Source: a virus (taxonomy: Duplodnaviria; Caudoviricetes). Taken from it: DNA of 55,674 nt. The notes under the pieces were generated by a model. That model saw nothing but the letters and a program-made list of their open reading frames with translations. It ran no database searches and was not told the origin of the DNA. The translations under genes and the position numbers were made by a program. Shown piece after piece: positions 20,719 to 48,587 of the stretch (positions within the stretch are counted from its first letter, which is position 1; each line of letters starts with the position of its first letter). Location: positions 1 to 55,674 of the IMG/VR virus record IMGVR_UViG_3300032282_003382; one strand, written 5' to 3'.

Positions 20719-22977
20719 ATGATCCAATATAACGCTGACATGGAAGCGGTGATTAGCCACGCTGTAGAGTTAGCAGTTAAGTATGAACATGAATATGTAA
20801 TGCTAGAGCATGTATTACTGAGTCTAATAAATCAAAAGAACTTCAGAGTATTACTCATAGATTTTGGTACAGATGTTGAAGGATTGGAAAAGGATCTAGC
20901 AGAATATCTGCTTACTATCCCCAAACATCATCACAAAAAAACATATCAGCCCAAGCGTACTAACAGCCTTGAGAGAATTTTTAACAGGGCATTGACGCAG
21001 GTTTTGTTTAGCGGCCGCAATCATGTATTGCCCATAGACTTGTTCCTGAGCATTAGCATGGAAGAAAAGAGTCATGCTAGTTACTTTATTCAGAAATACA
21101 ACATTGACAAGAAAGAGTTAGTACAATTCTTTAACGAAAACTATTCACAAGTCGCCAGCAACATGAGCGACAATAAGGCCGATTTAATCCTAGATGAGCA
21201 TTGTACTAACCTTAATGAAATGGCCAAGGCAGAGAAAATTGATCCTGTTATTGGGCGTGATAGTGAGCTCATGGAGATTATACAAGTACTAGCCCGTAAA
21301 CAAAAATCCAATGTATTGTTGGTTGGTGATCCTGGTGTAGGTAAGACAGCTATTGTAGAAGGACTTGCACTTAACATTGTGGAAGGTAATGTTCCGCCCC
21401 ACTTAAAAGATCATATTGTATATAACCTAGATGTGGGTAGTATGCTTGCTGGGTCAAAATATCGCGGGGACTTTGAAGAAAAACTTAAAGACACTATCAA
21501 AGCTCTACAAGCTAAAGGAAATTGTATTCTATTCATAGACGAAGCACATCAGATGCATGGTGCTGGCGCTGGCGGTGGGGGTGGTGTAGACTTAGCTAAT
21601 ATGCTTAAACCAGCTTTAGCCAAAGGCGGATTAAAAGTAGTAGCTAGTACAACCTGGGAAGAATATACACAGAGCTTTGAAAAGGATCGCGCACTGATGC
21701 GCCGCTTTTATCGCTTAACTGTGGACGAGCCTACTCCAGATGTTACTAAACAGATCTTGACTAGACTTAAGCCAATTTATGAACAATTCCATGGTGGTAA
21801 GATTCATCTTAAAGCTATCAATGCTGCTGTGGATTATAGTGTAAGGTACATAACTGATAAGAAGTTACCAGACAAGGCCATTGATCTTATTGACATGGCC
21901 TGTGCCAAGGCTAAAATTATTGATCCAAACTTTGTGATTAAGCGTCAGAATATTCTGGAAGTAGTTAGTAAGGCTGCTAAAATTCCATTGGAAAACCTTA
22001 CTAATGAGTCAGAGGCTATTACTGTTAACTTAGAAGATAACATTAAACAAAAACTATATGGCCAGGATGAAGCAATTACACAGGTACTGGAAAAGATTTA
22101 TATTGCCAAGGCTGGCCTTAAGACTATTAATAAACCCATAGGTAACTTTTTATTCCTGGGACCAACAGGAGTAGGTAAAACAGAGCTAGCCAAATTATTG
22201 TCTGAAAACCTGCAGATGAAACTTATTCGTTACGATATGTCAGAGTATCAGGAACGCCATGCCATAGCAAAGCTCATTGGTGCGCCACCAGGATATGTAG
22301 GCTATGAAGATGGTAACCTGGGCGGTGGACTATTGGTATCAGACATTGAAAAGAATCCGCATAGTATAATATTGTTTGACGAAATTGAAAAAGCACATCC
22401 TGATGTTAGTAATGTACTACTTCAGCTCATGGACGAAGGTACAGTTACTAGTTCAAACGGCAAAAAAGTAAGTGCTCGTAATACCATAATAATCCTAACC
22501 AGTAATTTAGGTGCTACCGAGTCTGAAAAGAATACCATAGGATTTGGTGACCTTACTCGCAAGGGTGAGGATGACAAAGCTGTTAAGGAGTTCTTTAAGC
22601 CTGAATTCCGTAACCGGTTGGATGGGGTAGTTAAGTTCAAGAGTCTGGATATGCAGTATGTAAAACGCATTGTGAACAAATTTATTTCTGAGCTTAATGA
22701 AATGCTGTCACAGAAAAACATCAAACTTCGTTGTTCAGAAAAATGTATTGATGCGTTAGCAACCAAGGGCTATGATAAGAAAATGGGGGCTAGGCCGCTT
22801 GCTCGTACCATAGATTCAGAGATCAAAGTACCATTAAGTAAAAAGATCTTGTTTGAGAAAATTCCAGGCAACAGTATTATTGAAGTTGACTATACTGACA
22901 AGTTCCTGTTTAATGTAATACTTTCTACAACTGAAAGGGAAATCCTAAGTGGATCAGAAATTTTGGAACAAACTTAA
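20719..22977 (+). CDS. clpA: ClpA-type Hsp100 AAA+ unfoldase
   Basis: Clp N domain, GDPGVGKT, GPTGVGKT, PPGYVG, IGF loop, GARP; no ClpB M-domain. Confidence 0.93.
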   Translation: MIQYNADMEAVISHAVELAVKYEHEYVMLEHVLLSLINQKNFRVLLIDFGTDVEGLEKDLAEYLLTIPKHHHKKTYQPKRTNSLERIFNRALTQVLFSGRNHVLPIDLFLSISMEEKSHASYFIQKYNIDKKELVQFFNENYSQVASNMSDNKADLILDEHCTNLNEMAKAEKIDPVIGRDSELMEIIQVLARKQKSNVLLVGDPGVGKTAIVEGLALNIVEGNVPPHLKDHIVYNLDVGSMLAGSKYRGDFEEKLKDTIKALQAKGNCILFIDEAHQMHGAGAGGGGGVDLANMLKPALAKGGLKVVASTTWEEYTQSFEKDRALMRRFYRLTVDEPTPDVTKQILTRLKPIYEQFHGGKIHLKAINAAVDYSVRYITDKKLPDKAIDLIDMACAKAKIIDPNFVIKRQNILEVVSKAAKIPLENLTNESEAITVNLEDNIKQKLYGQDEAITQVLEKIYIAKAGLKTINKPIGNFLFLGPTGVGKTELAKLLSENLQMKLIRYDMSEYQERHAIAKLIGAPPGYVGYEDGNLGGGLLVSDIEKNPHSIILFDEIEKAHPDVSNVLLQLMDEGTVTSSNGKKVSARNTIIILTSNLGATESEKNTIGFGDLTRKGEDDKAVKEFFKPEFRNRLDGVVKFKSLDMQYVKRIVNKFISELNEMLSQKNIKLRCSEKCIDALATKGYDKKMGARPLARTIDSEIKVPLSKKILFEKIPGNSIIEVDYTDKFLFNVILSTTEREILSGSEILEQT

Positions 22978-34996: not shown

Positions 34997-35224
34997 ATGG
35001 CTCATCCAGCTTGGCTTAAGAAGTATTTGAAAATGAAACCTGAAGTATCTGACATCTTCACAGACCTAGAAGAATTTAAGGCGTTTTGTGTAAAGTATGG
35101 TAGAGTATTCAGAGAAGCTGATCTATATAATAATCGCAATGAGACTTACCAGGACTTTAACCGCAGCAAAGCCGGCAAGAATGTTAAAAACGGCTGGTCT
35201 GAAGAACTTAAAAAGATGGCATAA
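34997..35224 (+). CDS. Small hypothetical protein in the dpdA operon
   Basis: AAGGA SD; IFTDLEEFKAFCVKYGRVFREADLY. Confidence 0.75.
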   Translation: MAHPAWLKKYLKMKPEVSDIFTDLEEFKAFCVKYGRVFREADLYNNRNETYQDFNRSKAGKNVKNGWSEELKKMA

Positions 35225-36297
35225 TGAATACGATTTATATTGTACCCATTGAACCTATTGATCAAAGGTACACTAAACAATGGTATGAAAATATCCCAGA
35301 ATTGTTTAATACAGCCATTTTTAATAATAAACTAAAATACAAAGTAAAAACACTAGATGGTGTTCAGTTAACTGCTGGTACTACATCTGGTGCATTTTTA
35401 GACTTTGGTGCCACTAATGTTTATAAGGCTAGTCAGACACAGCTCATTAGTGAAATGTTTAGCAGAGGTGAGATTGTAGCAGGAGATAAGTTTTTAGTAA
35501 CTGATGCCTGGAATTTTGTAATCACTGCTATCAGATATATGTCTGACTTGTTAGAGATTCCTGTAGAGATACATGGTATCTGGCATGCAGGTGCTTATGA
35601 CCCAAGTGATATTTTAGGTTATAAAATGTCTAAACCCTGGCCCTGGCATACTGAACTTGGTTGGTTTCATGCTTGTACTACTAACTATTATGCTACTCAT
35701 TTTCATAGAGATATGTTTATGCGTAATTTAGAAATTGACAATGATATCTATGGTTACAAGGCCATAGTAAGCGGACAGCCACATAATCCCATTATTGCTC
35801 AGTGTGAAAAATATGTTTCCAAAACTAAGAAAGAAATGGTTATTTGGCCACATCGTTATAATGATGACAAGCAGCCTAATATCATAGAAGATCTTTCAAA
35901 GCGATTAACTCCAGAAGTAGTTATTACTCAGAAAATGAATCTAAACAAGGATAAGTTTTATGAGACCATGGGTGATGCTAGTGTAGTGTTTAGTTGCAGC
36001 CTACATGAGAACTTGGGTATTAGTCAGATGGAAGGTACTTTGGCTGGAGCCATTCCAGTAGTTCCAGATCGTTGTAGTTACTCAGAAATGTATGTGCCAG
36101 AATTTAAATATCCAAGTATCTGGACCGAAAGTTTCGACAATTATAAGAAATACAAGGCTGATATTATTGACTTTATTTCTGACAAAGTGTACAATAGATC
36201 TAAATATATCACAGCACTAGCATATCAGACAGATATCTTAAAGAACAAATATCTGAATGCTGATGTAATGATTAACAATATTTTAGGATTAAAATGA
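35224..36297 (+). CDS. GT-B (GT4-like) glycosyltransferase resembling GTDC1/QTMAN
   Basis: WPHRYNDDKQP; ASVVFSCSLHENLGISQMEGTLAGAIPVVPDRCSYSEM (ExxG...E motif). Confidence 0.8.
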   Translation: MNTIYIVPIEPIDQRYTKQWYENIPELFNTAIFNNKLKYKVKTLDGVQLTAGTTSGAFLDFGATNVYKASQTQLISEMFSRGEIVAGDKFLVTDAWNFVITAIRYMSDLLEIPVEIHGIWHAGAYDPSDILGYKMSKPWPWHTELGWFHACTTNYYATHFHRDMFMRNLEIDNDIYGYKAIVSGQPHNPIIAQCEKYVSKTKKEMVIWPHRYNDDKQPNIIEDLSKRLTPEVVITQKMNLNKDKFYETMGDASVVFSCSLHENLGISQMEGTLAGAIPVVPDRCSYSEMYVPEFKYPSIWTESFDNYKKYKADIIDFISDKVYNRSKYITALAYQTDILKNKYLNADVMINNILGLK

Positions 36298-37004
36298 CAG
36301 ACACAAGCAAACATCTATCACAAGTATTACGCGAGCGCATGAAGTCCGATGGTAAAAGGTTCTGGGCCGGAGATAACATCAGCGACTACATAGCTGAATC
36401 AGACAAAGAACACTTGATCTCTGAAGCCACAGAAGCATTTGAAAAGGTTCTGGATGTATTACTAATTGATCGCGAAAACGATCCTAACAGTAAAGGCACA
36501 GCCAAACGATTGGCCAAGATGTACTTCAATGAGATTATGTCAGGACGCTATGATCCGGCACCTAATGCTACATCGTTTCCCAACAATAATGATGATGGTG
36601 CTCAACCCTATAACGGTATGATAGTTGTCAGGGCAGAACTAAAGAGTATGTGTAGTCATCATCATCAACCAGTTACTGGTACAGCCTATATTGGTGTTAT
36701 TCCCAATGGCAGAGTAATTGGACTTAGCAAGTATATTAGAATTGCGCAATGGTGTGCTCGCAGAGGTACTTTGCAAGAACAATTATGTAATGATATTGCC
36801 AACAATATTGGTATTGCTACTGGTAGTGGAAATCTTGGTGTATATGTACAAGCTACTCATGGTTGTTGTGAAAACCGTGGTGTAATGGCTCGTAGTAGTC
36901 TTACACAAACCACAGTATTACGTGGTGCATTTAATGACGATCCTGGTACCAAGAAAGAATTTTTCGACAACATTAAACTACAACAAGATTTTGCTCCTCG
37001 TTAA
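36294..37004 (+). CDS. folE: GTP cyclohydrolase I
   Basis: DPN..GTAKRLAKM, SMCSHH, VIGLSK, LQEQL, HGCCENRG. Confidence 0.95.
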   Translation: MTDTSKHLSQVLRERMKSDGKRFWAGDNISDYIAESDKEHLISEATEAFEKVLDVLLIDRENDPNSKGTAKRLAKMYFNEIMSGRYDPAPNATSFPNNNDDGAQPYNGMIVVRAELKSMCSHHHQPVTGTAYIGVIPNGRVIGLSKYIRIAQWCARRGTLQEQLCNDIANNIGIATGSGNLGVYVQATHGCCENRGVMARSSLTQTTVLRGAFNDDPGTKKEFFDNIKLQQDFAPR

Positions 37005-37012
37005 GGGAAACT

Positions 37013-37414
37013 ATGAAAGTAGGACTTAGTTATAGCCGCTGCATCGTGGACATCCTGGATGGCCAGGTGCAGGAAAGAGATGTTTTAGTCATTGTCACGG
37101 GCACCAAGTTTGACCCGCACAATGATCAGCAATGGGCTGACATCTATCGTGGTTATGAGATCACCTGGTCCCGGTTCAACTATACCGAAAGCGAATACCG
37201 CGATCTCACTATCCGGATGTACAACAATGGTCAGATACACCAACCGCGTTTGTTTGACGCTGGCCGTCGTTTTACAGGCGAAACTATATGGGGCCGATAT
37301 TGGCGTGACCTTGTGCCGATTCCCGAAGATCTAGAACAGCATCCTGCTGCGCAGGAACTCTGGGATCAGTTTAAAATGGTTGCTGCATTAAGCGATATTA
37401 AAATTATTGATTAA
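37013..37414 (+). CDS. Hypothetical protein
   Basis: MKVGLSYSRCIVDI...GQIHQPRLF. Confidence 0.75.
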   Translation: MKVGLSYSRCIVDILDGQVQERDVLVIVTGTKFDPHNDQQWADIYRGYEITWSRFNYTESEYRDLTIRMYNNGQIHQPRLFDAGRRFTGETIWGRYWRDLVPIPEDLEQHPAAQELWDQFKMVAALSDIKIID

Positions 37415-37422
37415 GAGAAGTT

Positions 37423-37869
37423 ATGCCACGCAAACAGAAAGAACTAAAAGTACCATGTTTTAGTTGTACAACCATGCATAAGGAAAGTGAACTGATTGAA
37501 ATGTCTGGTCAGTTAATTTGCCCTAGTTGTGGTGAAGGCTGGGTTATGTTAGACCAGCGTGATAGCTATGTTGAAGTGGATTTATTAGAAGCATTAGAAG
37601 AATTAAAGCGTGAATTTGAATCATTAGTAGTACCACTAACCAAGGAGAATAAAATGGCAAAAAGTAAGCCCGCAGTAAAAACCATCAGCGACAAGCTGGT
37701 CAAAGTAAACGAAAACTTCACCATTAACATGTATGACAACGGTTTCATGATTGAAGTTGGCGGCCGAGACAACGAGAACGAGTGGAAGAATGCCAAGATC
37801 ATGGTGACCACCGTGGATGAACTGGTGGCCCTGGTGCGTGAAGCCACTGAAATGGAACGAGATAGTTAA
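37423..37869 (+). CDS. Zn-ribbon-like ORF fused in frame to a second small gene (internal start 37654)
   Basis: CxxC...CxxC N-part; AAGGAG SD before in-frame ATG 37654. Confidence 0.6.
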   Translation: MPRKQKELKVPCFSCTTMHKESELIEMSGQLICPSCGEGWVMLDQRDSYVEVDLLEALEELKREFESLVVPLTKENKMAKSKPAVKTISDKLVKVNENFTINMYDNGFMIEVGGRDNENEWKNAKIMVTTVDELVALVREATEMERDS

Positions 37870-37896
37870 TTTAACAATTTTATTTGGAGTTTTATT

Positions 37897-38283
37897 ATGA
37901 AACCTGTTTGTGCATATCCATCGTGTAATTCTTTGGTTCATACTGTAGATAGAAAACGAAAGAAACTAAGAACTGTGTGTAAAACTCATCACACAACGAA
38001 AAAAGATTTAGTTAATGCTTGGAAATTATCTAAACAATGTGCCAACAAACATGGTGACATTACTGGTACTCCTTGTCTGGTTACAGATAAATTTACTAAC
38101 CCTTCACACTTGGACATTGATCATGTTGATGGAAATCCGTTTAACAACAACCCAAACAATCATCAAGTCTTGTGTAAGTTATGTCATATAGATAAAACTA
38201 TGAGACGGCAAGATCATATGCGTAGTGCAAAACAGAAATCATTTACAAGCACTGCTGGTAATCTTTTTCACGGAGTAAATTAA
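37897..38283 (+). CDS. HNH endonuclease-like protein
   Basis: LDIDHVDGNPFNNNPNNHQVLCKLCHIDKT. Confidence 0.85.
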   Translation: MKPVCAYPSCNSLVHTVDRKRKKLRTVCKTHHTTKKDLVNAWKLSKQCANKHGDITGTPCLVTDKFTNPSHLDIDHVDGNPFNNNPNNHQVLCKLCHIDKTMRRQDHMRSAKQKSFTSTAGNLFHGVN

Positions 38284-38284
38284 T

Positions 38285-38698
38285 ATGACTTCATGGACCA
38301 TAGCAACCACAGAAAAGAAATCTTGCGAAGAGCGGGAAATCTGGACCAAGGGTGATCAAGAGATTGTAGTAATAAATGGCTTCCGTTGGGGATCATATAG
38401 TGTTGAAACATCTGACGATAATCCACCAGATGGTATTACTGCAGAAAACTCCGAGGGTATTGATATGAATGCTCTATACGGTGACAACATTGAAAACTCA
38501 GAACTAATTAGCATGGATGATGGCTGGTATGGTGACATTGAATATAGCGATAATATCACCGAAGAAGCACAAGAACTAATACAGGAAGGTATTGACGAAG
38601 AAGGCGACCATTATAGTTACTTAGAAAATAATGGTTGGACTAACGATGATACCGAAGCCTGGTTTTTTGGACCGTTGGAAATTACTAAAGAAGATTAA
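38285..38698 (+). CDS. Acidic hypothetical protein
   Basis: GGAG SD; KKS..E, GFRWG, GPLEI. Confidence 0.75.
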   Translation: MTSWTIATTEKKSCEEREIWTKGDQEIVVINGFRWGSYSVETSDDNPPDGITAENSEGIDMNALYGDNIENSELISMDDGWYGDIEYSDNITEEAQELIQEGIDEEGDHYSYLENNGWTNDDTEAWFFGPLEITKED

Positions 38699-39369
38699 TG
38701 CAAGCTCATATCATTACCCTTAAAGGGCATGAGTTATCTGAAAGACTAAGTCAGGAGTGCAGAGCCCAGGCAGCAAAGTTTAATATAACTGCCTGGGTTT
38801 TTGATGCCATCTGGGGTAAAGATTATGCTGAACATGCCAGTAAGTTAAATATCCACATCCATCCAACTGTACCTAATGGTAAAATGACCATAGGTCACTA
38901 TGGTAATTTTCTGAGCCATTTTTATCTATGGCAGCAATGCGTTAAAGATGCTAAACCTTATCTGATATTAGAACACGATGGCTACTTCATTAAGCCGCTA
39001 CCTAATAATATTTTAGATCAGTTCACTGATGTACTTAAACTAGACAGTATTGATCCGTATCGCAAAGACTATGAGCAAGTAATGGCTGACGAGTTTAATA
39101 TGCCATTGTGTATCCGAAATATAAAGCCTAGTAAAGTTAAACAAGCTGGTGGTTACACCTGGGGCTGTTATGCCTATATTATTAAACCACATGCTGCCCA
39201 AAAACTTATTGACTGGGTCAAAGAATATGGGTTCTTACCCACAGATAATCAGATAGGCCTTGGTATTATAGATATTAAAACTTGTTATCCAACCATAGCA
39301 AGGATGCATCCATTTTTGTGCATAGGAGATAATATCTATACCCAATCTACAGCAGCCTACACCGAGTAG
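38698..39369 (+). CDS. Glycosyltransferase family 25-like
   Basis: FDAIWG, GNFLSHFYLWQQC, LILEHDG, AYIIKPHAAQKLI, PTD. Confidence 0.85.
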   Translation: MQAHIITLKGHELSERLSQECRAQAAKFNITAWVFDAIWGKDYAEHASKLNIHIHPTVPNGKMTIGHYGNFLSHFYLWQQCVKDAKPYLILEHDGYFIKPLPNNILDQFTDVLKLDSIDPYRKDYEQVMADEFNMPLCIRNIKPSKVKQAGGYTWGCYAYIIKPHAAQKLIDWVKEYGFLPTDNQIGLGIIDIKTCYPTIARMHPFLCIGDNIYTQSTAAYTE

Positions 39370-39383
39370 TCCATAAATAAAAA

Positions 39384-40484
39384 ATGGAAGATAATAAGCA
39401 CGAAACACTTACACAACAATATAGCACCTGGGGCGATAAGTTATTACAACATACTGATGTTTTACATAGCATTCAGTTTAAAAGGCAATTTAAACCCATA
39501 ACTGTTCAGCTGAGTCCAGTAGAAGCTTGTAGTAGCGGCTGTCCATTTTGTAGTGTTGCTGAGAGACCATTAAAGTCATATCTGCCCTGGGCTGATCTTA
39601 AAAAAGTACTAGAGGATTTTAAATCCCTGGGTGCCAAAAGCATAGAGATAACTGGTGGCGGTGAACCTTTATTATACAGGGATAAAGAAGCCAAGACTGA
39701 CATCAATTCCATTGTAGAATATGCTTCAGAGCTAGGATATGACATTGGTATCATAACCAACACTTTAAAACTAAATCGTATTAAACCAGAAAACTTTGAT
39801 AAAATTAAATGGATTCGCATAAGCCTAATTAAACTGGATGAAGGTTATAATCCAGAAGATTATGATTTTGCTGGATTCCCCAAGTCTAAAATTGGTCTAA
39901 GCTATATCATTTATGAAGGTACTCAAGGAACTGGTACTAGACTAGGCATGAGTTATAAGCCTACTGATGTTGAGACCATAAACAGAATTGCCAAAGTAGT
40001 TGAATTACATCCTGAAATTAAATTCGTTAGAATTGCTGGTAATTGTTTAATCAAAGGTAATAATGCTCTGATCCGAGACAAGTTTAAAAGAGTAATAGAT
40101 GCCATAGACACCAATAACAAGATATTCATTAAAGATATTGGTGATGATGACAGTCCCTTTGATCAGGGCTGTTATGTGGGCATGGTTAGGCCTTATGTAG
40201 CACCTGATCCCACTGGTACTGGAAAATACAAAGTTTACACCTGTACTAGTCATGTTCTGAACAAGCAAAATTATGATTTAGACTATGCCCTGTGTGATGT
40301 AGATAATATTAAGTCAACCTGGGAAGCATTAAATAAGAATTATGCAGACCAGGGTTATCCATATCAGATAAAAAACAACTGCGGTACAAATTGGACTGAA
40401 TCATGTAACTATTGTTACTACAAGTTCAATAACAAGATACTGCATACTGTTGCCCAGGAAATGCCTGATAAAAATTTTGCTTAA
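39384..40484 (+). CDS. Radical SAM protein with C-terminal SPASM/twitch-like Cys cluster
   Basis: CSSGCPFC, ITGGGEPLL, ITN, CY...CTS...CNYC. Confidence 0.9.
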   Translation: MEDNKHETLTQQYSTWGDKLLQHTDVLHSIQFKRQFKPITVQLSPVEACSSGCPFCSVAERPLKSYLPWADLKKVLEDFKSLGAKSIEITGGGEPLLYRDKEAKTDINSIVEYASELGYDIGIITNTLKLNRIKPENFDKIKWIRISLIKLDEGYNPEDYDFAGFPKSKIGLSYIIYEGTQGTGTRLGMSYKPTDVETINRIAKVVELHPEIKFVRIAGNCLIKGNNALIRDKFKRVIDAIDTNNKIFIKDIGDDDSPFDQGCYVGMVRPYVAPDPTGTGKYKVYTCTSHVLNKQNYDLDYALCDVDNIKSTWEALNKNYADQGYPYQIKNNCGTNWTESCNYCYYKFNNKILHTVAQEMPDKNFA

Positions 40485-41068
40485 TGAACAAATTCGACGA
40501 ACAATACTACAAAACAAATAACTACACAAATTACTTAAGTAAAAAAGAACGATATCTCAGAACAGCCGATGAGATATATCAGACTTTTAATAAGTTTAGC
40601 ATACTTAATACAGAATCTACCATATTGGATTATGGTTGTGGTGTAGGATTTTTAATTGCTGGTTTTGAAAAAATTGGATTTCAGAATGTCTATGGATACG
40701 ATATATCTGAATGGGCCACTGCCAAAGCATCAGAGTTTGGTCATAAACTAATATCTAAACCAGAGGGCTTTTATGATCTGGGTATCTTTTTAGATGTTTT
40801 GGAACACATGACTGATGAACAAATAGATACTACTTTTTTAAAATTAGAATTTGACAAAGTATTGGTGCGCATACCTTGCAGCGTACCCACAGATCCAAAA
40901 CGATTCTTTTTAGAAGTAAGCAGGCAGGATGATACCCATATTAATTGTAAAACACCATCAGGCTGGATTGAATGTTTCCGTAAAATAGGATACAAGGTCC
41001 ATTTGGAACTGAATATGGCCAGTATATACAATTCTGATGGATGTTTTTGCAGTTTGTTTATCAGATGA
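40484..41068 (+). CDS. Class I SAM-dependent methyltransferase
   Basis: ILDYGCGVG, GYDISEW, DVLEHM, DTHIN. Confidence 0.9.
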   Translation: MNKFDEQYYKTNNYTNYLSKKERYLRTADEIYQTFNKFSILNTESTILDYGCGVGFLIAGFEKIGFQNVYGYDISEWATAKASEFGHKLISKPEGFYDLGIFLDVLEHMTDEQIDTTFLKLEFDKVLVRIPCSVPTDPKRFFLEVSRQDDTHINCKTPSGWIECFRKIGYKVHLELNMASIYNSDGCFCSLFIR

Positions 41069-41070
41069 GC

Positions 41071-41099
41071 TTGACTATTATTGTAGTATCGTATAATAT
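41071..41099 (+). promoter_or_regulatory. Sigma70-type promoter
   Basis: TTGACT then TATAAT (15 nt spacer) or TAATAT (17 nt spacer). Confidence 0.6.
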
Positions 41100-41130
41100 T
41101 AGTTCTTAATTAAGTGCCAAGGAGTAGCTA

Positions 41131-41595
41131 ATGCTATTAAAGTTATTGGACAAGCTGGGCCGTAAGCGTATTGTAATGGATAGAGTAAACAATGAACCTT
41201 ATCTGGAGCGGTATTATGTTTTTCTCAAGGACCGAGGAGTATTTCCATTTAATGTCTTTCTACACAAGTTTCTTAAGTCAGATCCCGATGACTTGCATGA
41301 TCATCCTTGGCCTTATGCCACGCTGATACTTAAAGGCGGTTACTGGGAATGGATGCCTAAATTCGATGATACCGGTAATAAAATATCTGAGTACAAAGTT
41401 TGGCGTGGACCTGGACATTTTAGGATTAGTAGTGCCAAAAGTTTTCACAGAGTAGAATTAGAGCCAGGTGTAACAGCCTGGAGTTTGTTTATGCCAGGCC
41501 CTAAGCAAAGAGAATGGGGATTTCTTAGCAAAGGTGTCTGGATTCAATGGGAAAAATATCTTGAACTTAGACGGCTTAATGCTCAAAAAATATAA
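41131..41595 (+). CDS. Cupin-fold protein
   Basis: LHDHPW...ILKGGYWE...FHRVEL; AAGGAG SD. Confidence 0.8.
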   Translation: MLLKLLDKLGRKRIVMDRVNNEPYLERYYVFLKDRGVFPFNVFLHKFLKSDPDDLHDHPWPYATLILKGGYWEWMPKFDDTGNKISEYKVWRGPGHFRISSAKSFHRVELEPGVTAWSLFMPGPKQREWGFLSKGVWIQWEKYLELRRLNAQKI

Positions 41596-41803
41596 ACATA
41601 TCTTTTTTGACATAGATAAACCTTTGACTCCTAATGATAAACACTATACACTAATCTACAACTATACATCGCCCAAAAGACATTGTAGAGTCTGGTATGA
41701 CGTTAGATACAAAGAAGAAGCTTTTGTATTTTGGTTTGCTAACATGAAAAACATTTACAACAATAATTTGAAAGACTATTATGACACAGAAACTAACTAT
41801 TGA
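41579..41803 (+). CDS. Hypothetical protein
   Basis: Fills gap and overlaps both neighbours; start moved to ATG 41579. Confidence 0.45.
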   Translation: MLKKYKHIFFDIDKPLTPNDKHYTLIYNYTSPKRHCRVWYDVRYKEEAFVFWFANMKNIYNNNLKDYYDTETNY

Positions 41804-42281
41804 TCACAAGCAGTTCCAGAGCATTGTAGCTGCAATTTGTAGAGACATTGTTCTGGACGATTGGCGTCCTGATTATATTGTGGGTATTACTCGTGGTGGG
41901 TTACTACCCGCAGTTCTTATAAGTCATTATTTGGATGTACCTATGCACACTCTTAAGGTAAGCCTGCGTGATACTTCTGATACTGAAAGTAATTGCTGGA
42001 TGGCCGAGGATGCGTTCAATGGTAAAAACATTCTGATTGTTGATGATATTAACGATAGTGGTGCTACCATTAATTGGATTATGTCAGACTGGCAAGCCAG
42101 TGCATATCCTAAAGATTTGAAATGGAATGATATCTGGGGTAACAATGTCAGAGTAGCTGTTATTGTAGACAACTTATCAAGCCAGTCTAACCTTAGTGCT
42201 CATTATGTAGGTATGGAAGTAAACAAGGCAGAGAATGATGTCTGGATTGATTTTCCATATGAAGACTGGTGGATGAAATGA
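41781..42281 (+). CDS. Type I (purine) phosphoribosyltransferase, Gpt/Hpt-like
   Basis: IVGITRGGLLPA, ILIVDDINDSGAT (PRPP loop), WIDFPYE. Confidence 0.9.
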   Translation: MTQKLTIDHKQFQSIVAAICRDIVLDDWRPDYIVGITRGGLLPAVLISHYLDVPMHTLKVSLRDTSDTESNCWMAEDAFNGKNILIVDDINDSGATINWIMSDWQASAYPKDLKWNDIWGNNVRVAVIVDNLSSQSNLSAHYVGMEVNKAENDVWIDFPYEDWWMK

Positions 42282-42652
42282 CAGCCCTGATTGATGCTCA
42301 ACTATCAGGATATGCACCCTGGACTGATGAAGTAGAAGAACTATCAGACTTTCATGTAGCTGTATACAAAGATAAATTTGCAGTATCTCCAGGCCATTTA
42401 TTGTTTGTGCCTAGACACAATACTCCAGAAGTTATACAAGATGCGTTCTATAGTGCCTATATGCATGGTTGCCGTTTAAAACTCAGCGAACAATGTGATG
42501 GGTTTAATATAGGCATGAACACTGGAGACGCCGCAGGACAAACAGTTATGTACCCCCATATACATCTAATTCCCAGATACCGAGGTGATGTAGAGAATCC
42601 CCGTGGTGGTGTTCGTAATGTTATACCAGGCAAAGGTGATTACAAAGCATAA
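42278..42652 (+). CDS. HIT family nucleotide hydrolase
   Basis: SPGHLLFVPR, GFNIGMNTGDAAGQTVMYPHIHLIPR (first His replaced by Tyr). Confidence 0.9.
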   Translation: MTALIDAQLSGYAPWTDEVEELSDFHVAVYKDKFAVSPGHLLFVPRHNTPEVIQDAFYSAYMHGCRLKLSEQCDGFNIGMNTGDAAGQTVMYPHIHLIPRYRGDVENPRGGVRNVIPGKGDYKA

Positions 42653-43473
42653 TGCCTGGTATAGACAATTGGTTAAACCTTAACCTAATTCCTGGAGACA
42701 CAAGCAATCTAACAAAACAGTTAGCATGCCAGTTCAATCTGGGCACAGTTAAAAAGTTATCTATAAACGATGCTGCTGATTATACGGCAGATATCATATA
42801 TCAAAAGTATAAGGATCTGTACTTAAGTTTTAGTGGTGGGCTAGATAGTATGTTTGTGGCCAATGTCTTATATAGAAATAAAATACCATTTAAACCTATT
42901 ATTTTTGATTGGTATTGGCAAGAACCTGAGTGCTGGCATGCCTATGACTGGTGTGAAAAGCATCAGATTGAACCCATAGTTTATACTATAACTAAAGATA
43001 CTGAACAGGAATTTTTAGAAAAAATACTTAAGTATGCTTTGCAAGTTAAAACTCCAGCTAAGATTGGTTATATACCCATAATCCTGGCAGAAACATTACC
43101 TATTACTGGCAGGCTCATTACAGGTTATGGTGATCCGTTTTATATTTCAGTTAGTTATTCTGAGCCCATGGGCGATGTTTTTGAAATATCAGAACACGAC
43201 TATTATATGGATTTAGTTTACGGGTCAGATCATCCAGGTGGATTTTTAAGTTATACTCCAGAAATGTTTTTTAGCCTGGTGCGAAATATTCCAAATCATC
43301 TTAATACACAACAAGCCAAGGCTGAAATTTATGGATTAGAGTTCAGGCCAAAGTTTAATAATATTAATGTATTACCCTGGGGTAAATATCAAACACTCAG
43401 AGACAAGATAAATAAACCGTTTGAACTTACCGTACAACGATACCATAAAACTTCATTACTTAAATTGTTATGA
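42652..43473 (+). CDS. PP-loop ATPase-like protein
   Basis: LYLSFSGGLDS, LITGYGDP, GFLSYTPEM. Confidence 0.7.
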   Translation: MPGIDNWLNLNLIPGDTSNLTKQLACQFNLGTVKKLSINDAADYTADIIYQKYKDLYLSFSGGLDSMFVANVLYRNKIPFKPIIFDWYWQEPECWHAYDWCEKHQIEPIVYTITKDTEQEFLEKILKYALQVKTPAKIGYIPIILAETLPITGRLITGYGDPFYISVSYSEPMGDVFEISEHDYYMDLVYGSDHPGGFLSYTPEMFFSLVRNIPNHLNTQQAKAEIYGLEFRPKFNNINVLPWGKYQTLRDKINKPFELTVQRYHKTSLLKLL

Positions 43474-44282
43474 CACCAGTAATTTTTACGCATAAAGATA
43501 TATTTAAAAACAAAAACTATTTTAGCACATACAATTATATTCTGGATAGGAATTTTAAGTATTCAACAAATATTTGTCCACACCGTGGCTATGCTTTATC
43601 CAGACCCACCTACGCATTCAATGATTTAAGTTGTGGATTACATGGTTGGTCCTGGGACTTAAATGGAAAAGCCAGTCAACCCAATCAATCTAATTTAGTT
43701 CAGAAACAAGCCACCTTAGGGAAAAGTGGATTTATATTCAAGGACTTTGAAGAGCCAAATACTCCCTGGGTACATGAGCTAGGTGCTGAAGATTTAGAGT
43801 ATAGCCATAGTTTTTATAGAAAATGTCCTGGTGACTGGCGCTGGCAGATGGAGATGCATATTGATTTAGCTCATGTGCCTTACATACATCCTACATTGTC
43901 TAGCTACATAGACATAACTAAAATTAAAACAGAAGCTGGTGAAAATTATATTGCACAGTATCATGATCATGGCTGGTGGTTGTTTGTATATCCTGGTATA
44001 CATATAGAATATGAGCCAGGTAAAATTTACATTTCTGAAATGATACCCAATAAAACTGGATTGGGCTATGAGATGTTTGGGCATTATTTGTTTGATCCAT
44101 TACTTTCAGAATCAGAAAAAAATAATTTCTGCTTTGTGAATGAAACTACTCTGGATGAAGACATAGCAGCAGTAGCTAAAATGAAAATGGATTTTGTGAA
44201 ACCTAAGCCAACCACAGACCCATTGGAAGTATATAATCTACACTGGTATGATTTTTATAAAGAAAATTATCATGCCAGGTAG
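43470..44282 (+). CDS. Rieske non-heme iron oxygenase alpha-subunit-like protein
   Basis: CPH-x16-CGLH Rieske motif; E-x3-D-x2-H-x4-H (EMHIDLAHVPYIH) and distal ED. Confidence 0.85.
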   Translation: MTPVIFTHKDIFKNKNYFSTYNYILDRNFKYSTNICPHRGYALSRPTYAFNDLSCGLHGWSWDLNGKASQPNQSNLVQKQATLGKSGFIFKDFEEPNTPWVHELGAEDLEYSHSFYRKCPGDWRWQMEMHIDLAHVPYIHPTLSSYIDITKIKTEAGENYIAQYHDHGWWLFVYPGIHIEYEPGKIYISEMIPNKTGLGYEMFGHYLFDPLLSESEKNNFCFVNETTLDEDIAAVAKMKMDFVKPKPTTDPLEVYNLHWYDFYKENYHAR

Positions 44283-45150
44283 GAATAATTGGGTAAAACT
44301 TTCTTATGACGGTAAACCTCAAAGAAGTTTGTCTGAAAGTTTTATAATAACATACACAGAAAAAACTGATCGCATTATTAGTTTTAAACAGGCATGTACT
44401 GAATCAGCTCAGGAAATCTTTGACACTTATAAGAATGTCTATGTTAGTATGAGTGGAGGTTCTGATAGTGAATGTGTAGCAAACAGTTTTTATAATGCTG
44501 GATTGCCCTTTACCCCTGTAATATTAAAGATAGAAGATTATAACAGACATGACATTGTATATGCTCTGGACTGGTGTAAACAACGAAACATTAATCCTGT
44601 AGTTATCGAGCATGAAGTACAAAGCTGGGTATCTACTATAGCTGCATTACAAAAATTAGACCGTAACAGAATGTTATGGGGCATGGGCAATGTTTGGTTG
44701 GCTGATCATGTTAAACAATTAGGTGGTTATTTAGTAACTGGCTGCTGTGACCTACAACTCATACCTGATCCTGATTTAGAATTAGAATATTCTAAGCTAA
44801 ATGCCAAGTTTCAGGGTCAGTATGTACACTGGGAATGTGACTATGCTGTGGATCATCACGACCCAGGATATCATCCCAATGGATTCTTTATTTGGAAACC
44901 TGAAATGTTGCTGAGCTTCATAAATGAACGCAATCCAGCTTGGACTAATGCAGAAGCAAAATGGAATGTATATAAGGTTGGTCCCAGACCTAAATATGTG
45001 GGCATGGAAAATATTGACTTTGAAACAATTTATAGTACAATACGAAGTCCAGTTACAATTAAAAAGATAGTAGGCAAACACGATTGGATATTAGCTGGAA
45101 CTAATGAAACTTTATGGCAAGATATCTACGCTGGGAAAAAGCCAGCATAA
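44272..45150 (+). CDS. PP-loop ATPase-like protein, paralog of 42652
   Basis: VYVSMSGGSDS, LVTG..D, GFFIWKPEM; start moved to ATG 44272. Confidence 0.7.
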   Translation: MPGRNNWVKLSYDGKPQRSLSESFIITYTEKTDRIISFKQACTESAQEIFDTYKNVYVSMSGGSDSECVANSFYNAGLPFTPVILKIEDYNRHDIVYALDWCKQRNINPVVIEHEVQSWVSTIAALQKLDRNRMLWGMGNVWLADHVKQLGGYLVTGCCDLQLIPDPDLELEYSKLNAKFQGQYVHWECDYAVDHHDPGYHPNGFFIWKPEMLLSFINERNPAWTNAEAKWNVYKVGPRPKYVGMENIDFETIYSTIRSPVTIKKIVGKHDWILAGTNETLWQDIYAGKKPA

Positions 45151-45159
45151 ATATTAGTC

Positions 45160-45231
45160 AGAGGACTTGGCATTCACCCCTCTTAAAACATTCTGCATGC
45201 CATAAAACTTACTCAGAGAAAGAGGCAAGAG
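45160..45231 (+). ncRNA. Candidate preQ1-I-like riboswitch / pseudoknotted queD leader
   Basis: P1 AGAGG(45160-64)/CCTCT(45179-83); loop TGGCAT pairs with ATGCCA(45197-202); A-rich linker; sits before queD. Confidence 0.55.
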
Positions 45232-45711
45232 ATGGCAAAATACATTTCAACAAAAACTTATAAACAAATTGGCCCAGTGGCCTATCGTCAATGGCGTGCT
45301 GATAGTCATTGCAATCTAGTTCATGGATACGCACTTAGTTTCCACTTTGAATTTGAATGTGATACCCTGGACGCTCGTAATTGGTGCATGGACTTCGGTG
45401 GGCTTCGTCCACTAAAAGATAAACTAGAGGAATGGTTCGACCATACTCTATTGGTTGCACAGGATGATCCTCATCGTGATGCACTACTAAACTTAGGTAA
45501 ACTGGGCATAGCCAAGATCACCGAAGTGGAAAAAACTGGCTGCGAAGGCTTGGCTGACTTCCTGTACGAATATATCAACACCATATTCTTCCCCATGTAT
45601 GGAACAGAAGAAGCCAAGCGTGTGTGGTGTTGCAAAGTAGAAGTCAGAGAGACCGATGCTAACATGGCCATGCGTGTGGGTCATAGAGAAGACAACGAGT
45701 TTAGTGATTAA
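45232..45711 (+). CDS. queD: 6-carboxy-5,6,7,8-tetrahydropterin synthase
   Basis: HCNLVHGY, MDFG, FDHT, GCEGLA, VEVRET. Confidence 0.9.
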   Translation: MAKYISTKTYKQIGPVAYRQWRADSHCNLVHGYALSFHFEFECDTLDARNWCMDFGGLRPLKDKLEEWFDHTLLVAQDDPHRDALLNLGKLGIAKITEVEKTGCEGLADFLYEYINTIFFPMYGTEEAKRVWCCKVEVRETDANMAMRVGHREDNEFSD

Positions 45712-46568
45712 TGAATGCGCTGGACATAAAATGGTTGCATGTTGAACCTAGTTCAAGATGTAATGCTTATTGTCCAGCGTGTCCCAGAAATAATGGATCT
45801 ACTCAAAAACAAGAATTTATCCAGACTGATTTAGATACAGAAAAATTTGAAGTTGTTGTAAAATCATTGTACAATTTAGAAACTATCCAGTTTTGTGGAA
45901 ATTTAGGTGAACCTGTAATAGCACATAATTTTTTAGACTTAATACACATAGCTAAAAAACATTGTACAAAAATACAAATCCACACAAACGGCAGTTTAAG
46001 AAATATTACTTGGTGGAAAGAATTAGCTGCGCTGTTACAAGATATAGAACATAATGTTTGGTTTGGTATTGATGGCATTAATGACATCCATGCAATTTAT
46101 AGACAAGGCACTGATTACACAAAGATAATAGACAATGCTAGTAGTTTTATTAATAATGGTGGACATGCTACCTGGCAGTTTATACCCTTTGATCATAATA
46201 AACATCAAATTTTAGAATGTATGAGATTAAGTCAGCAACTGGGATTTAAAAACTTTAAATTTGTAAAATCATATAGACAACAACAACAAGTGAATAACAT
46301 TCATTGGCGAACTAAAGAAAATGTTAGTATTAATACACCTAACGAAGTTATTCACTTATTAAGAAAAGAACAAAATATAGAAGCTATGTCAGTCCAAGAA
46401 AAAGACTGTATGCATCTATCTTATCCCAGTGTGTACTTATCAGCACTGGGTAAACTGAGCACTTGTTGTTACTTTGGTAATATTCAATGGTATGATGATG
46501 TGTACCAACTATTGGAGAGTAAATTAGATTTAACTCACCATCGTTGTTTGGAATCATGTGGGGAATAG
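45711..46568 (+). CDS. Radical SAM protein
   Basis: CNAYCPAC, GNLGEP, HTNG, FGIDG, YRQG, HN.HQ, C...CC...C. Confidence 0.88.
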   Translation: MNALDIKWLHVEPSSRCNAYCPACPRNNGSTQKQEFIQTDLDTEKFEVVVKSLYNLETIQFCGNLGEPVIAHNFLDLIHIAKKHCTKIQIHTNGSLRNITWWKELAALLQDIEHNVWFGIDGINDIHAIYRQGTDYTKIIDNASSFINNGGHATWQFIPFDHNKHQILECMRLSQQLGFKNFKFVKSYRQQQQVNNIHWRTKENVSINTPNEVIHLLRKEQNIEAMSVQEKDCMHLSYPSVYLSALGKLSTCCYFGNIQWYDDVYQLLESKLDLTHHRCLESCGE

Positions 46569-46594
46569 TCCACATTAACTTTAAGGAGAAATAA

Positions 46595-47206
46595 ATGTTA
46601 GATAAGTTATTACCTGGTATTGATAAAGCTCTAGCTACTAAGCTAGTGATTTTTCATACCTTCATTATTGCACTAAGTAATTACCTGGTAAGCATGAAGT
46701 TTGAGTTATTGGGATTCCCACTAACTTACGCTGCATTCACCTTCCCACTAGTCGTCGTTGCAACTGACTTGACTGTTAGGATGGTAGGTAAGAGCCTGGG
46801 CAGAGCAGTAGTAGGACTTAGTTTTATCCCAGCAATTTGTGCCAGTATCTGGGTAGTTATAGCGTCTGGTGCTCCAGAAAGCGTTGCACTTAGAATTGGT
46901 GTTGCTAGTGGTGTAGCATACCTAATCAGTACATTGCTTGATGTTTATGTGTTCCAGTGGTTCAGAGAGAAGTATAGCTCTTGGTGGATTGCACCAACCC
47001 TGAGTAGTGTAGTTACTAGCATTATTGATACCTACGCATTCTTTGGTACGGCGTTCCATAATAGTGCCAACGAGTTTATGGCAGCAAACTGGCAAGTAGT
47101 AGCTACTAACCAGATCATTACTAAGATTGTTGTTAGCTTACTTGTTATTCTGCCAGCTTATGGTGTATTGCTCAATTATTTGCAAAAGAAGATTGAAGCT
47201 GAATAA
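46595..47206 (+). CDS. yhhQ: Queuosine-precursor (preQ0/preQ1) transporter, YhhQ/VUT family
   Basis: IIALSNYLV, AFTFPLVVVATDLTVRMVG, RIGVAS..AY, LLDVYVF, IDTYAFF..AF, LPAYGVLL. Confidence 0.9.
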   Translation: MLDKLLPGIDKALATKLVIFHTFIIALSNYLVSMKFELLGFPLTYAAFTFPLVVVATDLTVRMVGKSLGRAVVGLSFIPAICASIWVVIASGAPESVALRIGVASGVAYLISTLLDVYVFQWFREKYSSWWIAPTLSSVVTSIIDTYAFFGTAFHNSANEFMAANWQVVATNQIITKIVVSLLVILPAYGVLLNYLQKKIEAE

Positions 47207-47411
47207 CAATCAGTTGTTGTCTTGGGTGGCCAATGCTGTTATAGTATTGGCCACTGTCACCACAGCATTTGACATCATACCCGCAAATAAAGTATTATTC
47301 CTTGTGGGCTGTATACTTTGGACTATAGTTGGAATAAAATGGCGTCAACCAAGTCTGTGGTCACTTAATATATTTTGCGGATTGTTATACATTATAGGAT
47401 TGTTGAAATGA
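47193..47411 (+). CDS. Small 3-TM membrane protein
   Basis: Hydrophobic ORF (WVANAVIV, YP-like IIPAN, W..VGIKW); start uncertain, TTG 47193 chosen. Confidence 0.55.
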   Translation: MKLNNNQLLSWVANAVIVLATVTTAFDIIPANKVLFLVGCILWTIVGIKWRQPSLWSLNIFCGLLYIIGLLK

Positions 47412-47746
47412 AAGCACAAAAACCAGCCGAGGGAATCCTCAAACAACATGATTGGGGCAAATCTAAGGTCTATCAGGTCATCTGCGATTGTGGCCAATCT
47501 GACCACACCCACACAGTATGGGTAGAAGCAGATGATTGTAATGTATCTGTACAAATTTATGTAGATGTTAAAAGCCCATCTTGGAGCATGAATCGTTTTA
47601 AACAAATCTGGACATTGTTAACTACAGGTTATCTACGGCACGAAACTGCGTTATCCATGTCTAATCAACAAGCTCTGAATTATGCAGAAGCATTAAAGTC
47701 TGCCATCAAAGATGTTGAAAACTTTAGAAAGAAAACCAATGTCTAA
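47408..47746 (+). CDS. Hypothetical protein
   Basis: MKAQKPAEGIL, CDCG..DH, QQALNYA; ATGA overlap. Confidence 0.7.
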   Translation: MKAQKPAEGILKQHDWGKSKVYQVICDCGQSDHTHTVWVEADDCNVSVQIYVDVKSPSWSMNRFKQIWTLLTTGYLRHETALSMSNQQALNYAEALKSAIKDVENFRKKTNV

Positions 47747-48587
47747 AATCAAAGTAGCAGAACTATTTTATAGCATACAAGGAGAAGGTAGGTACATGGG
47801 TGTGCCTAGTGTGTTCTTGCGTGTATTTGGATGTAACTTTAAATGTGCCGGTTTTGGCATGCCCCGAGGAGAATTCAGCAATGAAGCTATCAATATTGAC
47901 CCTGCTAACTATACCGACTACAAATCCCTTCCTCTTGTTAGCACAGGTTGTGATAGTTACGCTAGTTGGGATCCTCGCTTTAAGCATCTATCTCCCGTTT
48001 TGGATACTGATGCGATTGCCCTTGCTATTGTGGATACGCTACCGCACAAGGAATGGCGCGACGAACATCTGGTGATCACAGGAGGTGAACCTTTATTAGG
48101 ATGGCAACGAGCATATCCAGACTTGCTGCGGCATCCTAAAATGGCAGATCTTAAAGAGATCACTTTCGAAACTAACGGTACTCAACCACTAACTGATGAG
48201 CTGGCTGATTACTTGCTAGAATGGTTGATGCCACATCCAGATTATACCAGAGAAATCACATTCAGTGTTAGTGCAAAACTACCATGCTCAGGTGAGAAGT
48301 GGTCAGATGCCATTAAGCCCGAGGTAGTAGCAGGTTATCAGCAGCTAGGTTATGTGTATCTCAAGTTTGTGGTGGCCACAGATCGTGATGTGCAAGATGC
48401 TATCATGGCCGCGCATGAGTTCAAGGAGGCAGGTGTGGATGTGCCTGTGTATCTAATGCCCGTAGGTGGTGTGGAAAGTGTTTATAGTCTGAACAATCGC
48501 ACAGTGGCACACAAGGCCATGGAACTGGGTTATCGTTACAGCGATAGACTTCAGGTCCCTTTGTTTAAAAATGCCTGGGGTACTTGA
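47739..48587 (+). CDS. queE: 7-carboxy-7-deazaguanine synthase
   Basis: ELFYSIQGEG, FLRVFGCNFKC...GCDS, ITGGEP, ETNGT, SVSAKL, YLMP, RLQV. Confidence 0.92.
   Translation: MSKIKVAELFYSIQGEGRYMGVPSVFLRVFGCNFKCAGFGMPRGEFSNEAINIDPANYTDYKSLPLVSTGCDSYASWDPRFKHLSPVLDTDAIALAIVDTLPHKEWRDEHLVITGGEPLLGWQRAYPDLLRHPKMADLKEITFETNGTQPLTDELADYLLEWLMPHPDYTREITFSVSAKLPCSGEKWSDAIKPEVVAGYQQLGYVYLKFVVATDRDVQDAIMAAHEFKEAGVDVPVYLMPVGGVESVYSLNNRTVAHKAMELGYRYSDRLQVPLFKNAWGT

Follow-up and report, generated by a model that had tools for sequence, protein, structure and literature searches.

The element described here is the leader of queD in a Caudoviricetes sequence, IMG/VR virus record IMGVR_UViG_3300032282_003382; the window is this complete record of 55,674 bases, which is a genome fragment (CheckV completeness estimate ∼16%). 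The 81-nucleotide (nt) spacer between the stop codon of an upstream open reading frame (ORF) of 300 amino acids (aa) and the queD ATG at 45232 holds an RNA pseudoknot of ∼43 nt, and it is nearly certain that this conserved structure is real. We describe it, as judged from its sequence, as a riboswitch-like pseudoknot that is related in fold to preQ1-I and is not filed as a member of that class. There is a good probability that it acts as a cis-regulator of queD translation, and we lean towards the more specific view that the queD leader is a ligand-activated (ON) translational riboswitch with a compact H-type pseudoknot as its aptamer. The elements of the leader, together with the genes on either side of it, are as follows, where P denotes paired strands and L denotes loops.

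45148-45150, + strand: stop codon TAA of the upstream 300-aa ORF, which ends just before the leader
45146-45153, + strand: CATAAATA, a T4-late-promoter-like octamer that includes this stop codon
45160-45164, + strand: P1 5' strand, AGAGG, paired with 45179-45183
45165-45167, + strand: L1, ACU; the first base is variable, the C and U invariant
45168-45173, + strand: P2a 5' strand, UGGCAU, paired with 45197-45202 (6/6 pairs Watson-Crick); same letters as the start region AUGGCA
45174, + strand: U of a conserved U.C mismatch, opposite C45196
45175-45176, + strand: P2b 5' strand, CA, in pairs C45175-G45195 and A45176-U45194
45177-45178, + strand: L2, CC; C45178 is invariant and immediately 5' of the P1 3' strand
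45179-45183, + strand: P1 3' strand, CCUCU, covarying with 45160-45164
45184-45193, + strand: L3, UAAAACAUUC, 10 nt, with invariant A45186, A45188 and A45190 and a conserved YUC
45194-45196, + strand: P2b 3' strand, UG, and C45196 of the mismatch (from column counts)
45197-45202, + strand: P2a 3' strand, AUGCCA, used in both folds (switching strand); has 45198-45202 in common with the anti-start strand
45198-45203, + strand: anti-start strand, UGCCAU, paired with AUGGCA (45232-45237) in the minimum-energy fold of the leader
45208-45229, + strand: linker with two short inner helices, CUU/AAG and CUC/GAG, and the Shine-Dalgarno (SD) element partly inside (minimum-energy fold and energy evaluation, window only)
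45220-45225, + strand: SD sequence, AAGAGG, 6 nt 5' of the ATG
45232-45237, + strand: 3' strand of the sequestor helix, the first six bases of queD
45232-45711, + strand: queD, 159 aa, PTPS/QueD family (Pfam PF01242, 5.5e-15; phrog_2389, 2.8e-39)

Folding of the single sequence (45154-45240) was uninformative (z = -0.28; 80 of 200 shuffles fold equally well) because minimum-energy folding is blind to pseudoknots, and relatives were therefore collected. A QueD protein search of IMG/VR yielded 476 related loci, and most of the best 80 of these, which were kept, show by eye the same leader with compensatory changes. The covariance model R1, which was built from 44 distinct queD-derived leaders and is independent of any loop pattern, finds the motif in 64 of the 80 kept loci (E ≤ 1.8e-4) and once in the window, where the same scan found no second copy. 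For P1 and P2a in 47 distinct sequences, 91.0% of cells are paired versus 72.5 ± 1.4% with shuffled 3' partners; none of 500 shuffles reaches the observed pairing, slid partners give 42-56%, and 7 of the 10 pairs have changes on both sides. A degenerate loop pattern retrieved at least 119 further stretches from IMG/VR, and R1 matches all 80 that were fetched. With both sources combined (100 distinct sequences), 92.5% of cells are paired versus 70.2 ± 1.0% in shuffles, with compensatory changes at 8 of the 10 pairs. P1 is 99.0% paired in this set, with three covarying pairs (AU/UA; GC/CG/UA; CG/AU/UA) and two invariant closing G-C pairs, while P2a as modelled is 85.9% paired, with all five of its pairs covarying. 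The initial annotation, which was made by a model from the letters of the window, had proposed an H-type pseudoknot with exactly these helices, AGAGG/CCUCU and UGGCAU/AUGCCA. The strands are where it placed them, the fold is conserved, and the covariation in related phage queD leaders that it had named as a check is present in both helices. It had also placed CATAAATA directly before AGAGG, which is incorrect by six intervening bases (TTAGTC). A DNA-level element was rejected because G.U pairs are frequent and strand-specific, and are compatible only with RNA of the + strand.

The unpaired positions are conserved as well. In L1, the second and third bases are C and T in all 100 sequences (pattern-fixed in 54 of those 100), and among the 44 queD-derived sequences the U never varies and conservation of the C is 90% or higher; the first base is T in 47, A in 30 and C in 23, and the window has A45165. 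The columns of U45174 and C45196 are T and C, respectively, in 99 of 100 sequences each, with both pattern-fixed in part of the set, and each reaches 90% conservation or more in the queD-derived set. All 44 queD-derived sequences have C45178, and the base before it is T in 71, C in 18 (as in the window) and A in 11 of the 100. The three invariant adenines of L3 fall at alternate positions, both in the queD-derived set and in the columns of the 100 sequences.

We also find that P2 is longer than earlier proposed, with two new inner pairs, C45175-G45195 and A45176-U45194, which we call P2b. The hint came from column counts, in which the few sequences with G for A45176 all have C for U45194. In queD-derived rows, the first position is C-G in 45 of 46, and the second is A-U in 41 and G-C in four, with the one remaining row being misaligned and really G-C. 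Scans of the viral collection gave at least 119 stretches with the A-U form of the inner pair and at least 120 with the G-C form; for the latter, R1 matches 78 of 80 fetched stretches, 66 of them at E ≤ 1e-3. The A.C combination occurs in nine stretches in the whole viral collection, one of which is matched by R1 and real, and the G.U combination, though permitted by the pattern, is found in none of 79 distinct pattern-derived rows. Since the inner pair swings from A-U to G-C as a unit, with mismatches nearly absent, P2 extends over 45168-45176 and 45194-45202. P2b shortens L2 to C45177-C45178 and leaves the U45174.C45196 mismatch inside P2. The single real A.C copy (L452:137-192) may stand midway between the A-U and G-C forms, or may form an A+.C wobble.

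Some loci depart from the standard arrangement. At L066:2918-2972, L2, the P1 3' strand, L3 and P2 are kept and the P1 5' strand is lost (UAAGG opposite CCGGU), and this leader may be a decaying copy. At L063:2305-2983, and in L068 at identical coordinates, a partial aptamer (∼2305-2340; R1 E 0.098) has P1, L1, the P2 5' strand and the P1 3' strand and is without L3 or the P2 3' strand; it is followed by a 184-aa ORF (2366-2920; sub-threshold NUMOD3 match) and then by a complete motif and queD. This looks like a mobile endonuclease-type gene inserted in the leader, with duplication of the leader's 5' half.

More than 200 loci have the conserved aptamer, which is nearly confined to phage contigs and to positions before QueD/PTPS genes. 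The tie to queD that had been proposed for the window is borne out by the downstream genes: 134 of the 146 called ORFs group with the window's QueD in a single BLAST cluster, and four of four divergent N-terminal variants tested belong to PF01242. The other 12 are short ORFs before queD (L003; L005, L006 and L010; L069 and L073, a cupin), an ORF inserted beside a partial copy (L063 and L068) and four miscalled starts. Genes downstream of the G-C subgroup are likewise QueD-like. The carriers range from contigs of <20 kb to contigs of >350 kb, and their QueD proteins are strongly divergent. In bacterial genomes, the A-U pattern matched at least 120 stretches, and three of the 80 fetched are real (L229, L271 and L278); they stand before QueD-like ORFs on contigs of metagenome-assembled genomes (MAGs), and may be phage DNA binned with the MAG. 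The other 77 were set aside as chance matches inside genes. The G-C pattern gave none convincing among 80 fetched of at least 120 bacterial stretches, with one 22-bit match that is without P1 pairing; both bacterial scans are lower bounds (at least 120 each) and do not imply absence from bacteria.

The P2 3' strand is also the key to the predicted expression platform. In the window, the minimum-energy fold pairs UGCCAU (45198-45203) with AUGGCA at the queD start, and the P2a duplex and this sequestor duplex are equal in energy (-6.9 kcal/mol each). The AUG bases are unpaired at 1-4% in the knot-free ensemble, and at 33-57% when the P2 strands are withheld. Among 113 distinct leaders of the A-U group, 108 have a helix, mostly of at least 6 base pairs (bp), that overlaps P2 by at least 2 nt, and 73 of the 113 have helices that beat 95% of shuffles. 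These helices join the P2 3' strand and the bases that follow it to the SD (58) or to the start codon (54), which lie 21-42 nt downstream of P2 and pair with the P2 3' strand in the alternative fold. There are at least four platform types, all reusing the P2 3' strand: start-codon hairpins AUC/GAUG and AUUG/CAAU, the SD hairpin CCUAUG/CAUAGG by which the 58 cover the SD, and ACUCC/GGAGU. In 43 distinct start-sequestering leaders the sequestor helix is 97.6% paired and covaries, though these leaders were picked by the bases after P2, and two of the seven pairs are thereby biased; the pair adjoining the AUG is C-G in 34, U-A in seven and A-U in one, and the outermost pair is U-A in 32 and A-U in three. 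Three strands change together (GACUU/AAGUC/AUGACUU, GACAU/AUGUC/AUGACA, GGCAU/AUGCC/AUGGCA), and the P2 5' strand can therefore be read as a decoy of the start region. As the knot and closure of the ribosome site are mutually exclusive, stabilization of the knot should turn translation ON.

The initial annotation had suggested an ON switch of this general kind, with the P1 3' strand as the switching element. The ON logic is kept, with the P2 3' strand as the anti-start or anti-SD strand in 108 of the 113 leaders. The proposed partner is not: CCUCUU (45179-45184) is indeed complementary to the SD AAGAGG (45220-45225) in the window, but the pairing is not conserved as a switch: only 19 of 113 leaders allow 5 bp or more of it, and of the 57 leaders whose P1 is the commonest one, AGCGG/CCGCU, none does. 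What competes for the ribosome site in a conserved manner is thus the P2 3' strand, not the P1 3' strand. As far as sequence comparison can indicate, the motif has the general pattern of riboswitches, with a conserved aptamer and variable expression platforms in the leaders of related genes.

Two further sequence patterns occur in these platforms. In the window, P2 is followed by the linker AUCAAACUU (45203-45211), which is nearly invariant in many start-sequestering (type-A) leaders and has either ACUC...GGCAAGAG or GCUAC...GACUAGAG as the next block. In type-B leaders (for example, L001:2968-2995), the loop of the CCUAUG/CAUAGG hairpin is often UGCUAUAAU, which on DNA is a perfect extended -10 element. 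A second, in-leader promoter at UGCUAUAAU would yield transcripts that lack the aptamer; the element is absent from some type-B leaders.

Promoter-like elements are concentrated directly upstream of the knot. TAAATA ends 0-9 nt before P1 in 31 of 125 distinct upstream sequences versus 2.0 expected from shuffles, and a sigma70-like -35/-10 element does so in 24 of 125 versus 1.1 expected; L229, L271 and L278 have the consensus TTGACA-17-TATAAT in that position. PMC9004378, in its available text, gives TATAAAT as the late promoter motif of the T4 type. We call the window octamer CATAAATA promoter-like only, because it overlaps the upstream stop codon. The upstream elements are presumed, from their sequence and position, to function as promoters, and their concentration 0-9 nt before P1 indicates that the transcript probably starts at or near the aptamer in many phages.

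The position of the upstream stop codons bears on a different explanation, in which the knot would be a recoding or coupling signal of the upstream ORF (readthrough, frameshift or reinitiation). P1 of the window begins 9 nt past the upstream TAA, and short distances are common, with the stop within 0-12 nt in 61 of 118 loci. However, the distance from stop to P1 varies from 0 to 418 nt, a frame is open into P1 in 19 of the 118 loci, many loci have strong putative promoters between stop and knot, the upstream genes vary by locus, and the partner that the knot keeps across loci is the start region downstream. A recoding signal for the upstream ORF was rejected because of the variable spacing, and we consider this explanation highly improbable.

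The same stop codons are relevant to a second alternative, namely a translational operator that binds a protein, or a structural switch that works without a ligand, so that no metabolite is sensed. Its cue might be a phage or host protein, the ribosome, protein S1, temperature or Mg2+, and terminating ribosomes at the upstream stops 0-12 nt before P1 could remodel the knot. Pseudoknot operators are known in T4-like phages (gene 32 mRNA), and a small-molecule ligand is not proven by anything in the sequence. On the other side, the unpaired bases are invariant across divergent QueD proteins, both types of promoter-like element (sigma70 and TAAATA), and contigs from <20 kb to >350 kb, so that a chemical partner fits better than a co-evolving protein, and the link to one enzyme family points to pathway metabolites. 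We therefore regard an operator or ligand-free switch, with any of these cues, as unlikely.

Returning to the ligand-activated riboswitch, we propose the following mechanism. In the absence of the knot, the shared P2 3' strand would close the ribosome site, and queD would be left untranslated. When the knot forms, it would take up the shared strand, and the start codon (in other phages, the SD) would be freed. The P2 5' strand would act as a decoy copy of the ribosome-site sequence, and what holds the knot would most likely be a small planar ligand that has a guanine-like face and stacks between P1 and P2. We infer that the effector is a small molecule, and likewise its identity and the operation of the switch as described. 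A ligand with a guanine-like face is suggested by the invariance of C45178, and the candidates would be a 7-deazaguanine (preQ0, preQ1 or 7-carboxy-7-deazaguanine (CDG)) or a pterin intermediate. We rank 7-deazaguanines first because of the fold alone, and pterin precursors second because they are physiologically sensible. QueD is the first committed enzyme of 7-deazaguanine synthesis, and ON control argues against a pathway end product as the ligand. A tentative extension of this idea, which we hold to be possible though doubtful, is a new riboswitch class confined to phages, in which a preQ1-I-like pocket activates QueD translation and the effector is not the pathway end product. It might be, for example, dihydroneopterin triphosphate or a folate-status signal, so that GTP-derived pterin would be diverted into deazaguanine synthesis only when the precursor is available.

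Several points weigh against a ligand-activated switch in the queD leader, or against the figures on which it is based. A biosynthetic gene would not be expected to be turned ON by its end product, which is a weak point in the physiological logic. The G-C subgroup makes a weaker case, since its anti-SD helices are short (4-6 bp) and, while 47 of 64 leaders have an SD or start helix that overlaps P2 by at least 2 nt, only three of the 64 beat 95% of shuffles. The motif is missing in 16 of the 80 kept queD relatives, and the nearest cultured phages (ACP17, with 70% QueD identity, and X1 and BUDD, with ∼65%) have no leader space and no whole-genome match to the model, so the motif is dispensable for queD expression as such. 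As for the figures, the P2 counts come from alignments fitted to a P2-containing model, which favours pairing; the sequences are related, so that shuffle counts are not probabilities; and 54 of the 100 sequences are pattern-derived, so that loop conservation is readable only from the queD-derived set.

Gene content says little about the ligand, or about the suggestion of the initial annotation that the phage seems unable to make preQ1, since the record is a fragment. The window codes for FolE, QueD, QueE, a SPASM radical-SAM protein and a YhhQ-type preQ0/preQ1 transporter, and also for PhoH, a clamp loader, tail fibre proteins and a T4-type DNA polymerase. Five larger relatives (G001-G005, the records behind L068, L010, L038, L126 and L120; 180-382 kb, three of them at least 98% complete) have QueF in one and QueC weakly in two, and none matches PF01702 (TGT/DpdA), a model that could miss distant DpdA families. 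The motif is surrounded by a long same-strand block of nucleotide or base-modification genes at 35224-48587, which includes two glycosyltransferase-like ORFs, a methyltransferase, a HIT protein, a Rieske protein and a purine-type phosphoribosyltransferase, together with the transporter and QueE. Members of this block with their positions, and one gene elsewhere in the window, are listed below.

36294-37004, same strand as the block: FolE
39384-40484, same strand as the block: radical-SAM protein
41131-41595, same strand as the block: match to phrog_4786 (PHROG 'cysteine dioxygenase'), with no Pfam match
42652-43473 and 44248-45150, same strand as the block: two ORFs without a family, each with an SGGxDS PP-loop-like motif
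45711-46568, same strand as the block: SPASM-like radical-SAM protein
20719-22977: 752-aa ATP-dependent protease (phrog_4871, 2e-245)

The stretch was found in 20 DNA runs from seven studies of lake water, freshwater, estuary and aquaculture water, and no RNA run is listed as containing it, a blank that counts neither for nor against transcription. The motif-bearing contigs derive from lake and estuary water.

We found no published description of the motif in a search that covered sources other than subscription journals and bioRxiv supplements. The available text of the 2024 review of the preQ1 family does not mention phages or viruses, queD, or any member that activates, and the word riboswitch does not occur in the available text of two papers on phage deazaguanines (PMC6884629, PMC10516641). 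A blastn search of two leaders against 50,697 phage records gave short chance matches outside the aptamer only, though the method has little power for a motif of 43 nt. PMC9004378, in its available part, calls riboswitches rare in phages. The present motif is abundant, with at least ∼120 matches in each of two IMG/VR pattern scans and with a place in 64 of the 80 kept queD relatives, and it sits on the entry enzyme of the phage 7-deazaguanine pathway with a small (∼43 nt) decoy-strand design. Should it bind a ligand, synthetic biology would gain a natural ON switch that is new and minimal in size, the timing or gating of deazaguanine synthesis by phages could be probed with it, and it would be a test case for rebuilding a preQ1-I-like pocket with another L1 and a long P2. 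If it is indeed a class of its own in phages, both an activating relative of the preQ1 knots and a riboswitch for phage 7-deazaguanine biosynthesis genes would be known for the first time.

The most obvious comparison is with preQ1-I (RF00522), to which the initial annotation had likened the leader. In the available text of PMC11625349, preQ1-I is an H-type knot with a 5-bp P1, whose closing G-C pair forms the floor of the pocket. A strictly conserved C, the specificity cytosine, lies directly 5' of the P1 3' strand and follows U in type I and A in types II and III. L1 opens with a conserved uridine, U6, which reads N9-H of preQ1, a contact that is made in all three types, and the A-rich L3 contacts the P1 minor groove and the ligand. 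Ligand binding sequesters the ribosome-binding site or acts on a terminator (OFF), with the SD in or near P2 (PMC11625349). Measured against this description, the queD motif is likewise a small H-type knot with a 5-bp, G-C-closed P1 and with P2 formed by the 3' tail. It has the invariant C (C45178) directly 5' of the P1 3' strand, with U or A before it in 82 of 100 sequences, and an A-rich L3, which by analogy would run along the P1 minor groove and make contacts there. It also shares the queuosine/7-deazaguanine gene context and the predicted translational control through P2.

The differences from the same description are as follows. L1 is NCU and then a spacer that varies, with a variable first base where preQ1-I has the conserved, ligand-contacting U. 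P2 has 8-9 positions, with the U.C mismatch and inner C-G and A-U/G-C pairs, whereas the P2 of preQ1-I has 2-4 pairs. L2 is 2 nt, and the 10-nt L3 has the extra conserved YUC. The SD or start codon is outside P2, 21-42 nt past it, the P2 3' strand is antagonistic to it, and the predicted logic is ON. The motif is known from phage contigs, besides the three copies on MAG contigs. The search with Rfam PreQ1 models that had been named as a check gave no match at any threshold tried. The whole window has no Rfam match at gathering thresholds; 45050-45350, scanned with E up to 10, has no match at the motif to any Rfam family, the PreQ1 models (RF00522, RF01054, RF02680) included; and scans of L001 and 20 further loci, also with E up to 10, likewise gave nothing at the motif. 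Over the record, the best RF00522 scores are 10.8, 10.6 and 9.4 bits, all away from the motif, compared with a gathering score of 39. Weak matches to snoRNA, miRNA and lncRNA families were dismissed as chance.

The leader could still be a divergent true member of preQ1-I that binds preQ1 or preQ0 in the usual pocket, with control in either direction. The shared architecture and the position before a queuosine-pathway gene speak for this; against it stand the missing RF00522 match, the variable L1 uridine, the long P2 with its mismatch, the extra YUC, the ribosome site outside P2, and the lack of an activating or phage-borne member in what is available of the 2024 review. We judge it to be quite improbable. 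The likeness to preQ1-I in architecture thus stands, but the motif is not filed in the family because there is no model match, the L1 uridine varies, P2 is long and has a mismatch, and the ribosome site lies outside P2.

The preQ1-II and preQ1-III riboswitches (RF01054, RF02680) are similar in the pathway regulated and in having a pseudoknotted aptamer, but in the available text of PMC11625349 they are HLout-type folds of ∼80-100 nt with another pocket and OFF control. Neither of their models matches here. SAM-II, SAM-V, fluoride and guanidine-III are H-type pseudoknot riboswitches with the ligand at a helix junction or in a triplex; they are alike in fold type and size, whereas their conserved sequences and gene contexts differ, and the Rfam scans of the window, L001 and the 20 further loci gave no match to them. 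The 5' pseudoknot of T4 gene 32 mRNA is a protein operator that nucleates binding of the gene's own protein. Like the queD motif, it lies at the 5' end of a T4-like phage mRNA and serves in translational control; unlike it, the gene 32 knot is not known to have an invariant loop signature tied to a metabolic enzyme. Finally, the add adenine riboswitch of Vibrio vulnificus is a ligand-activated translational switch, a three-way junction of the purine class that controls a bacterial salvage gene. It is not a pseudoknot, and what it has in common with the queD leader is the proposed sharing of a strand between the aptamer and the helix that closes the ribosome site.

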